DNA of 7,936 nucleotides from a virus (lineage: Duplodnaviria > Heunggongvirae > Uroviricota > Caudoviricetes): positions 1-7,936 of IMG/VR virus record IMGVR_UViG_2695420871_000002; one strand, written 5' to 3'. Positions 3,385-4,221 of this stretch are shown in pieces. The number at the start of each line of letters is the position of its first letter. The stretch's first letter is position 1. A program made the translations under genes and the position numbers. The notes beneath the pieces are model-generated. The model was not told where the DNA came from and did no database searches. It saw nothing but the letters and a program-made list of their open reading frames with translations.

Positions 3385-3741
3385 TTATTCAGTTCTGGAT
3401 TTTGTCGCCCTGCGTATCCGCGCTTTCGCGTTACGCTCAATCTGTATCAGCTTTTCTATATTTCTCCGCCTTTCCTGTTCCTCCTGGCGCAATAGCCTTA
3501 CATCATCTGCCAGTCTGGTTTCTCTTTTTGCCACAGAGAGCATCCAGTCAAACGGCTCCACAACCGCACCGCAGATTTTACAGCGGACCTGACGCTCTTT
3601 TTCGTCAACCCGTACAGAGGCGTGATGGCAATATGGTCTTTCCGATGGCTCATAAAGAAAATTAACCTGATTACGAGGGTTATCCTCTTTTACCGGAAAT
3701 AAAACAATATTGCTTAACTCATCTTCTGGTTTTATTTCCAT
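3385..3741 (-). CDS. Hypothetical Zn-ribbon-like protein with basic coiled-coil C-terminus, 118 aa
   Basis: ORF 3385..3798 trimmed to the ATG at 3741, which follows a strong SD (AAGGAGAGGAGC). The alternative start at 3798 abuts the upstream stop (TGAATG). Contains C-H-H...C-K-I-C and an R/K/E-rich tail. Confidence 0.5.
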   Translation of the reverse strand: MEIKPEDELSNIVLFPVKEDNPRNQVNFLYEPSERPYCHHASVRVDEKERQVRCKICGAVVEPFDWMLSVAKRETRLADDVRLLRQEEQERRRNIEKLIQIERNAKARIRRATKSRTE

Positions 3742-3798
3742 GCTCCTCTCCTTTGATGCGAATGCCAGCGGTAATTGAAGCCTGATAGCTAATTTCAT

Positions 3799-4221
3799 TC
3801 ACAGTATCGCCTCCTGAAAATTACCCTGATAGAAAGCCAGTACACGCTGCATAGCTTCGCTCTTCCGGCACTCGCGACAGATTATATTCAGGCGCCTGTC
3901 GTAGCGGCGTATTTCTCCGTCAGGTAATGACCAGATAAGGTCCGGATCAACAACAACCGGTTTCCTCACCTTTACTCTCGAGAGTTTTTTGCGGGCGCTT
4001 TGCCAGTCCTTGCGAGCCTGTTCAGACGGGAATAAGCCGTAGCCAGAATTATATACATCACCACTTGCGACCAGTTCTATGCATAAGCGACCGACAGACG
4101 CACGACTGATACCTGTTTCATCTGACAACTGCCGAATCGTGACCCGACCGTCCTGATGCACGAGTTCCACAATTCGCGTCTTCAGTTCTTCCCGCTGTTC
4201 GGGAGTAAAAGGTTTCGCCAT
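3799..4221 (-). CDS. Putative winged-helix DNA-binding phage protein, 140 aa
   Basis: ORF 3799..4221 with strong SD (CAGGAGGATTTA-ATG). N-terminus IRQLSDETGISRASVGRLCIEL has an HTH pattern. Sits directly after the DnaC-like gene. Confidence 0.6.
   Translation of the reverse strand: MAKPFTPEQREELKTRIVELVHQDGRVTIRQLSDETGISRASVGRLCIELVASGDVYNSGYGLFPSEQARKDWQSARKKLSRVKVRKPVVVDPDLIWSLPDGEIRRYDRRLNIICRECRKSEAMQRVLAFYQGNFQEAIL

Follow-up and report, generated by a model that had tools for sequence, protein, structure and literature searches.

The early region of a Rac/Qin-like lambdoid prophage of Shigella and Escherichia coli is represented in a 7,936-nucleotide (nt) stretch of DNA, comprising positions 1 to 7,936 of IMG/VR record IMGVR_UViG_2695420871_000002 and hereafter called the window. 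We examined two small genes in this region that are located between the gene for a DnaC-like helicase loader and a gene for QueH, an epoxyqueuosine reductase. All early genes of the window are on the minus strand. Beginning with DicA, which is encoded on the plus strand, the order is DicC, a YdaT-like protein, a YdaU-family replication initiator, the YdaV loader, the two genes under study (a DUF977 gene and a zinc-ribbon gene), QueH, a hok/sok locus, an open reading frame (ORF) of 95 amino acids (aa), DUF1367, YbcO, and a DUF1133 Q-like gene. Records of identical proteins come mainly from Shigella sonnei and S. flexneri, and the nearest complete genomes are those of E. coli FDAARGOS_943 and FDAARGOS_944, with approximately 99.5% identity over 7.8 kilobases (kb).

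A preliminary description of this sequence had recognized two tightly linked genes that matched no nin gene known to its author, coding for a winged-helix protein and a zinc-ribbon protein, whose stop and start codons abut as TGAATG and which were proposed to form a three-gene block with QueH. The identities of the neighbouring genes are borne out, including that of QueH (PF02677, E 1.9e-65), and so is the presence of the two minus-strand ORFs at 3799-4221 (140 aa) and 3385-3798 (137 aa), with the literal string TGAATG at 3801-3796. The genes do not constitute a conserved unit, however; each has its own recombination boundaries. The features of the region are collected in Table 1.

Table 1. 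Features of the DUF977/zinc-ribbon region in window coordinates
Feature	Position	Strand	Evidence or remark
ydaV-like gene, DnaC-like helicase loader	4236-4982		Directly before the DUF977 gene
Ren-family gene (Pfam DUF977, PHROG 142), 140 aa	3799..4221	-	PF06163, phrog_142, hhalign, BLASTP, AF2
Relic ORF of a deleted Ead/Ea22-like gene, 27 codons, VNEISYQASITAGIRIKGEEHGNKTRR and stop	3719..3802	-	Translation, matches to Ea22-like starts
Conserved 5' linker of the zinc-ribbon cassette (CCGCTGGCATTCGCATCAAAGGAGAGGAGC)	3742..3771	-	Shared across upstream contexts
Zinc-ribbon/coiled-coil gene (PHROG 1621), 118 aa	3385..3741	-	phrog_1621, alignments, AF2
3' flank travelling with the zinc-ribbon cassette	3299..3384	-	Megablast to Stx2a phages, alignment
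QueH (epoxyqueuosine reductase), separate cassette	2551..3216	-	PF02677 E 1.9e-65, PGAP

The product of the first gene is a member of Pfam family DUF977 (PF06163), which it matches with 116.5 bits against a gathering cut-off of 22.1, with residues 1-136 aligned to profile positions 1-134 of 134. The protein also matches phrog_142, whose members are called 'Ren-like exclusion protein' (E 2.7e-44), and the Ren protein of phage lambda matches the same profile (E 1.6e-41). Profile-profile comparison, which the preliminary description had put forward as a check, gives it a named lambda relative. Specifically, hhalign alignment of a profile built from 27 DUF977 sequences to one built from 22 Ren sequences yields a probability of 96.9% and an E-value of 1.4e-10 over 91 aligned columns. 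The aligned regions comprise both the winged helix and the tail, and are separated on the DUF977 side by an insertion of approximately 35-40 residues. The C-terminal 20 aa alone identify lambda Ren by BLASTP (NIICRECRKSEAMQRVLAFY versus NLVFKECRQSAAMKRVLAVY, 60% identity, E 3e-7), and this is where the shared motif N-I-I-C-R-E-C-R-K-S-E-A-M-Q-R-V-L-A-F-Y is found.

The winged helix itself had been predicted correctly. Matches to HTH_24, IclR and MarR models have E-values of 7e-6 to 2e-4, and the AlphaFold2 (AF2) model places helices at residues 7-24, 29-36 and 40-53, followed by a wing, with a predicted local distance difference test (pLDDT) score above 90 over residues 7-63; a basic helix is present at 67-82. 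Lambda Ren likewise matches a MarR-type profile, phrog_1687. Other searches with the DUF977 protein were less informative. Foldseek with its model returned generic winged-helix regulators only, nothing useful was obtained from NCBIfam, and the PDB sequences gave chance-level matches only (Z-alpha domains, E 0.09). The sole PADLOC match, to Csa3 in the HTH region (E 0.0017), does not identify a component of a defence system.

The gene is also found where ren would be expected. In lambda, the order is O-P-ren-ninB, with ren following P, and in the window the DUF977 gene is positioned directly downstream of the helicase-loader gene in the operon of the early rightward promoter (pR). Among 80 loci, DUF977 follows the replication module regardless of its type, with DUF1627 in 38 cases, YdaV in seven, and an O-like gene, located approximately 1.1 kb after a YdaT/CII-like gene, in 24. 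Judged from its sequence, this gene is a relative of lambda ren in the usual ren position after the replication genes, and on the basis of homology and position we adopt a Ren-like function for it. For lambda, two-hybrid contacts of both Ren and O with Rex proteins have been reported, and ren is viewed as probably related to replication (bioRxiv 10.1101/2021.04.19.439022). In some phage records DUF977 proteins carry the label 'LygF', a name that, among the literature matches listed, appears only in Salmonella genome announcements.

One lead concerning this gene was rejected. A preprint reports that ydaW blocks a retron toxin (10.1101/2020.06.22.160242), but YdaW of E. coli K-12 is encoded by the DUF1627 gene and not by DUF977. 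The DUF1627 protein (L003:4445-5206, from E. coli ERP001), of whose gene K-12 ydaW is a truncated copy, is often encoded between ydaV and DUF977. Of its two regions that resemble winged helices, one has a weak match to the Ren-like PHROG 142 (E 1.3e-4).

The second gene codes for a protein that matches phrog_1621 over the full length of the profile (E 3e-55), with the match beginning at residue 20 of the 137-aa ORF. In the 118-aa numbering used here, the architecture includes an acidic N terminus with the sequence E-L-S-N-I-V-L-F-P, a zinc ribbon of the form C38-x-H40...C54-x2-C57, a D-P-F-D sequence, and a helix carrying E102-R-N104-x-K106-A-R108. The AF2 model (pLDDT 74) exhibits the ribbon followed by a basic helix of 55 residues at 63-117. 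The preliminary description of a C-H-H...C-x2-C protein with a basic coiled-coil tail is accurate with respect to the ribbon and the helix, but not to the first histidine: the ligands are C38, H40, C54 and C57, and His39 is not conserved.

An alignment of 67 diverse members defines the family. C38 is present in 66 and H40 in 65, and C54 and C57 are invariant; in the helix, E102, N104 and R108 are retained in 63, 62 and 65 members, respectively. The family N terminus is acidic and includes [DE]-N-[VI]-[VI]-x-[FL]-P, a V-D-E-x2-R sequence lies between the two knuckles of the ribbon, and D-P-F-D follows it. The helix follows a coiled-coil heptad in which residues 84, 91, 98, 105 and 112 fall at d and residues 88, 95, 102 and 109 at a, such that the nearly invariant Glu102 of the E-R-N-x-K-A-R motif occupies an a position. 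A word-indexed search recovered 148 relatives in Enterobacterales with identities down to approximately 43%, and a full profile search extended the family to at least 1,516 clusters at 50% identity (E<=1e-3), 230 of them reaching E<=1e-10. All 67 diverse members match PHROGs 1621, 8538 and 4865, and none matches a Pfam family above threshold. In a single IMG/VR contig (3300036851_000739, L109:3042-4445), a 467-aa ORF combines a zinc-ribbon-family region, 38% identical to a distant family member, with an AAA_25 RecA/DnaB-like ATPase; this is the only ATPase fusion of this kind seen.

For this gene, the statement that it matches no named gene stands, whereas the Ren-family assignment removes it for the other. 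No homology to named nin proteins (NinB-NinH and others) was detected, and none of the PHROG matches has an assigned function. For the zinc-ribbon protein, NCBIfam and PADLOC give no match, PDB sequences give chance-level matches only (S27e, E 0.56), and Foldseek with its model retrieves nothing from PDB or BFVD at E<=0.001. When 50,697 phage records were searched by tblastn, 22 contained a homologue, all annotated as hypothetical, and no literature mention of phrog_1621 or WP_001343130 was found. The closest approach to a described domain is the TFIIB ribbon PF08271, which scores 21.1 bits against a cut-off of 29; similar sub-threshold matches occur in ten of the 67 family members, and Foldseek aligns the model to the TFIIB ribbon 1pft with an E-value of 0.31. 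The protein is not of the TraR/DksA type, as there is no Pfam match, the ribbon precedes the helix, and the ligands are Cys-His-Cys-Cys. By these comparisons, the gene is an ordinary member of a large phage family that is catalogued yet uncharacterized.

Further resemblances of this protein were rejected or count as leads at most. The product of 933W L0065, a split-off C-terminal domain of Ea22, was rejected as a homologue, since tblastn did not recover 933W in its set of 22 phage records. The N-terminal peptide resembles a beta-clamp-binding motif, but its fourth position is variable and not hydrophobic. Similarly, the E-R-N-A-K-A-R-I-R-R segment resembles a bZIP basic region or the arginine-rich peptide of P22 N, but the conserved residues fit the coiled-coil heptad instead.

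The start that the zinc-ribbon gene shares with its homologues is the ATG at 3741, which yields a 118-aa protein, and not the ATG of TGAATG at 3798. An AAGGAG Shine-Dalgarno sequence (3748-3753) is positioned 6 nt upstream of ATG 3741, and this start agrees with both the PHROG profile and the annotation by the Prokaryotic Genome Annotation Pipeline (PGAP), which assigns 357 nt to the gene in FDAARGOS_944. Homologues all begin with M-x-x-E-x-E-L-S-N-V (near M-x-T-E-T-E-x-E-L-S-N-V), and the copy in the Stx2a phage ArgO145 encodes 118 aa with 98% identity. The upstream in-frame ATG is present in only 22 of 88 near-identical copies, and many of the others carry a stop 12-16 codons upstream without an ATG. 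In other contexts, sequence conservation begins approximately 30 nt before ATG 3741.

The 57-nt spacer between the DUF977 gene and this start holds a relic of a third gene. Its GTG start codon (3802) overlaps the DUF977 stop codon (GTGA) and is preceded by AGGAGG (3810-3815) at a distance of 7 nt. The N terminus of the 27-codon ORF agrees with the V-S-K-I-[DNS]-Y-Q-A-L starts of Ea22-like proteins, its last 17 residues correspond to a common tail, and its stop codon lies 20 nt inside the zinc-ribbon gene. This tail, AGIRIKGEEHGNKTRR followed by a stop, terminates many different genes upstream of zinc-ribbon copies. The conserved 5' linker of approximately 30 nt has a double role, as it supplies both the Shine-Dalgarno sequence for ATG 3741 and the tail codons of whichever gene precedes. 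It is found in at least six unrelated upstream contexts. The genes that end in the common tail are mostly Ead/Ea22-like (PF13935), and they also include an HNH enzyme and a 183-aa ORF without a Pfam match.

In locus L056 the corresponding position is filled: a DUF4406 gene and a complete Ea22-like gene (PF13935, E 1.3e-24) are located between the DUF977 and zinc-ribbon genes. The DUF977 gene of this locus is 96% identical to that of the window, and alignment of the flanks with the window gives 92% and 97%. Given this complete gene, and a relic that combines an Ea22 start with the common tail, the DUF977 and zinc-ribbon genes came to adjoin each other when an Ea22-like gene between them underwent an internal deletion. 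Since all DUF977-linked zinc-ribbon copies examined have the same junction, the deletion looks like a single event that later spread. TGAATG is thus a trace of the deleted gene and is not a coupling signal for the zinc-ribbon gene.

Two other arrangements upstream of zinc-ribbon genes were observed. In about a dozen loci (L030:5472-6023 and similar), the 183-aa ORF (...PTYGGPLDSYTIPTKDSDGEFSCERYDHDFGGW...) is located between the DUF977 and zinc-ribbon genes, and its C-terminal tail is the same as that of Ea22-like genes. Two E. coli prophage contigs from IMG/VR (L021 and L031) each contain two near-identical zinc-ribbon copies approximately 1.7 kb apart (~2250-2603 and 3948-4300 in L021). The duplicates follow different upstream genes, each of which ends in the same AGIRIKGEEHGNKTR(R/G) tail.

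The linker and the 3' flank delimit a mobile segment. Megablast homology to Stx2a phages, of which ArgO145 is the example, covers only positions 3299-3770 of the window, and the corresponding copy in ArgO145 is located in the exo-xis region of the operon of the early leftward promoter (pL). The 3' flank retains a vestigial ribosome-binding site belonging to the gene that comes next in ArgO145, and it ends in a perfect 6-bp GC-rich hairpin, CCGCCC-GAAA-GGGCGG (3299-3314), exactly at the junction of the zinc-ribbon and QueH cassettes. No T run follows this hairpin on the coding strand, and a pattern scan calls no terminator there; the same kind of scan yields neither a promoter nor an intrinsic terminator belonging to the zinc-ribbon cassette. 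Of 84 zinc-ribbon copies that are nearly identical, 50 follow DUF977 and four directly follow an Ea22-like gene. In 29 cases the upstream gene is one other than DUF977 with a shared AGIRIK(GE...) tail, several of these being Ea22-like. Proteins in which an Ead_Ea22 domain is fused to the zinc-ribbon protein also exist (P0002 and P0361), and in Enterobacter phage Tyrion the Ead/Ea22-like gp49 precedes a zinc-ribbon homologue with 40% identity.

The QueH gene has a history of its own. Among 76 near-identical copies of the zinc-ribbon gene, only 11 have QueH downstream, and it is found there in none of 30 distant loci, half of them enterobacterial and the other 15 from a more remote subfamily. 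Viewed from QueH, 72 informative loci have DUF977 directly upstream in 56 cases and the zinc-ribbon gene in ten. The QueH copies are all at least 99% identical and thus represent one recent lineage. The co-occurrence with QueH (DUF208) across prophages that had been suggested as a check therefore does not extend beyond that lineage. Furthermore, the region upstream of QueH is conserved from approximately position 3285, whichever gene precedes it, including in loci without the zinc-ribbon gene. The whole 2.6-kb arrangement is present at 80% or greater coverage in two of 5,426 complete E. coli genomes. PADLOC gives no match for QueH, and a link to queuosine metabolism is not supported. Directly downstream of QueH is a hok/sok type I toxin-antitoxin locus (2318-2493 and 2168-2380, both on the minus strand), recognized by the Rfam sok model (117 bits) and a Hok/Gef ORF (E 1e-22). 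Among the downstream neighbours of the 30 distant loci there is one queuine tRNA-ribosyltransferase (phrog_887, E 2e-96), so that a queuosine-related gene adjoins a zinc-ribbon homologue in a second, independent case.

The alignments thus partition the proposed block into three independent cassettes, Ren-like, zinc-ribbon and QueH, in mosaic juxtaposition. Presumably they are co-transcribed from the early rightward promoter; no promoter or terminator pattern separates them.

The family assignments, the limits of the genes, the relic, the neighbour counts and the structural elements are direct results of the comparisons, whereas the functions of both proteins are inferred. We consider it likely that the two genes are unrelated accessory genes of the early rightward operon, one Ren-like and the other encoding an early zinc-ribbon adaptor, that were joined by recombination and not by shared function. 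By homology with lambda Ren, the Ren-family protein would be a non-essential partner of the replication module and would allow phage development in cells with a Rex-type exclusion system. It would probably act via protein contacts, and its winged helix could possibly bind DNA. The zinc-ribbon gene would be read through from early operons, that of pR here and that of pL in Stx2a phages, because there is no room for a promoter of its own. In E. coli phages, an Ead/Ea22-like gene recurs upstream with its tail overlapping the zinc-ribbon start, and in the window this gene has been cut down to the 27-codon relic. The zinc-ribbon protein might then be an oligomeric adaptor that is made early after induction, docks on a conserved host or phage factor, and forms part of an Ea22-type set of early developmental modulators. 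We propose this role because of the lack of promoter room, the occurrence in both early operons, the overlap and fusion with Ea22-like genes, and the architecture of peptide, linker, ribbon and coiled coil. A bolder version, in which the N-terminal [DE]-N-V-V-x-F-P docks on a conserved bacterial machine and the protein, together with Ea22-type proteins, biases the lysis-lysogeny or replication programme, seems doubtful to us. If true, it would define a new host-takeover module common to lambdoid and some non-lambdoid phages.

Several observations weigh against this interpretation. The experimental basis for both families consists of the genetic phenotype of lambda Ren. The C-terminal half of the DUF977 model has low confidence (pLDDT 50-66), and the N-terminal peptide of the zinc-ribbon protein, which AF2 leaves disordered, may be structural and not a docking motif. 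The Ea22 link is not universal: in the 30 distant loci, the upstream genes include NinG/Rap (six), YbcO-type HNH enzymes (five), RusA (two), DNA methyltransferases (five) and replication initiators, and at least 14 of these loci continue with a Q-like antiterminator. In outline, distant homologues are placed between Holliday-junction resolvases and Q antiterminators. Neither DUF977 upstream nor QueH downstream is among the neighbour families listed for these loci. Near-identical copies are not independent observations, and counts of their neighbours overstate the support. Finally, with 50 of 84 such copies located behind DUF977, selection for the juxtaposition is possible.

These neighbours raise the alternative that the zinc-ribbon protein is an accessory factor for DNA transactions in replication or recombination, where a DNA-binding ribbon of the primase or TFIIB type would aid junction resolvases or the replisome. 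The proximity of NinG, RusA, HNH enzymes, methyltransferases and replication initiators is consistent with this role, as are the ATPase fusion and the weak sequence and structural resemblance to the TFIIB ribbon; the order of the zinc ligands also resembles that of primase and TFIIB ribbons. However, adjacency may merely reflect a common location in the nin region, there is no constant resolvase partner, the fusion is a single case, and all ribbon-family matches are below threshold. We therefore regard this role as unlikely.

A different alternative concerns the DUF977 protein, which might be an ordinary sequence-specific transcription factor for downstream nin-region cargo such as QueH and hok instead of a Ren-like protein. 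The MarR/IclR-type winged helix, modelled with high confidence, would suit such a factor, and DUF977 lies directly before QueH in most QueH loci (56 of 72), with a gap of approximately 150 nt. This appears rather improbable to us, given that no promoter-like site is present between DUF977 and the downstream genes and that DUF977 follows the replication module whatever lies downstream. The C-terminal motif and the position are common to Ren, and lambda Ren has the same winged helix and is not known as a regulator.

The frequent Q-like neighbour of distant homologues and the TFIIB-like ribbon could also indicate that the zinc-ribbon protein acts on transcription, for instance by binding RNA polymerase or aiding Q-dependent antitermination, and its arginine-rich C-terminal helix recalls RNA-binding peptides. 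This is quite improbable, as the gene is far from Q in both the window and Stx2a phages, the protein is excluded from the DksA/TraR family by its reversed domain order and lack of a Pfam match, and the pattern of conserved basic residues is that of a coiled-coil heptad whose core includes a glutamate, which suggests oligomerization and not RNA binding. Least probable is a single functional block of winged-helix regulator, zinc-ribbon protein and QueH, such as a regulator with anti-defence or tRNA-modification cargo, which the shared strand, the short gaps, the recurrence of the exact arrangement in E. coli FDAARGOS_943/944 and Shigella, and the presence of DUF977 within two genes before QueH in 66 of 72 loci would favour, but which is weakened by the rarity of the full arrangement, the sporadic occurrence of QueH behind the zinc-ribbon gene, the separate homology boundaries of each gene, the single recent QueH lineage, and the absence of PADLOC matches.

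Elsewhere in the window, the YdaU-family initiator gene (4989-5788, minus strand) is split into two overlapping ORFs of 222 aa and 89 aa, in comparison to an intact 262-aa gene in E. coli FDAARGOS_944. Relative to that reference, its glutamate tract has 12 codons versus six, there is one additional lysine codon, and a frameshift occurs right after DLNTDLPL. With this gene split, the prophage is probably replication-defective. Beyond DicA (7131-7818), there are plus-strand ORFs of 69 aa and 70 aa and a minus-strand ORF of 98 aa; none has a PADLOC match, and the 98-aa ORF also has no Pfam match.

These findings have consequences for annotation, in that proteins labelled DUF977 or 'LygF' can be assigned to the Ren family, and annotation of the zinc-ribbon gene should begin at the internal ATG, giving 118 aa. 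The locus also offers a clear small-scale case of lambdoid mosaicism, in which short linkers at gene boundaries allow a 470-bp cassette to pass between pL and pR operons. The deletion behind the apparent operon has left its trace in a relic of 27 codons. The zinc-ribbon family is large, conserved and uncharacterized, and in Stx2a-converting phages it adjoins the pro-lysogenic ea22 gene, so its study could inform early phage development.

Among known systems, lambda Ren is the closest to the DUF977 protein. The two share PHROG 142, an N-terminal winged helix, the motif N-x-I-x-x-E-C-R-x-S-x-x-M-x-R-V-L-x-x-Y, and a slot right after the loader or replication module, and some Ren homologues end in YRGNFQ, as the DUF977 protein does. 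In contrast, Ren has 96 aa rather than 140, lacks the insertion (a basic helix and a low-confidence segment) and the second cysteine (C115-x2-C118), and does not pass the Pfam DUF977 model. The adjacent replication module is YdaU/YdaV in the window and O/P in lambda, and escape from Rex could be assigned to the DUF977 protein by analogy only.

The zinc-ribbon protein does not differ in kind from other members of PHROG 1621 and the related PHROGs 8538 and 4865, with which it has in common the zinc ligands, D-P-F-D and, in the helix, E-R-N-x-K-A-R. For this family, neither a Pfam or NCBIfam model nor a solved structure or literature was found. TFIIB-type ribbons (PF08271) are similar in being small zinc-binding modules, some with the same Cys-His-Cys-Cys spacing. 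Orf73 of the exo-xis region, which is TraR/DksA-like, is different, as the coiled coil of the zinc-ribbon protein follows the zinc site, DxxDxA is absent, and the ligands are not four cysteines. Lambda Ea22 is pro-lysogenic (PMC7093339, PMC10834534), and gene fission and the shuffling of domains are known from its family (PMC8614690). In sequence, the zinc-ribbon protein does not resemble Ea22 domains, and the link is drawn from gene context: Ead/Ea22 (PF13935) genes are located directly upstream, overlap the zinc-ribbon start, and are sometimes fused to it, and both are coiled-coil proteins made from early transcripts.

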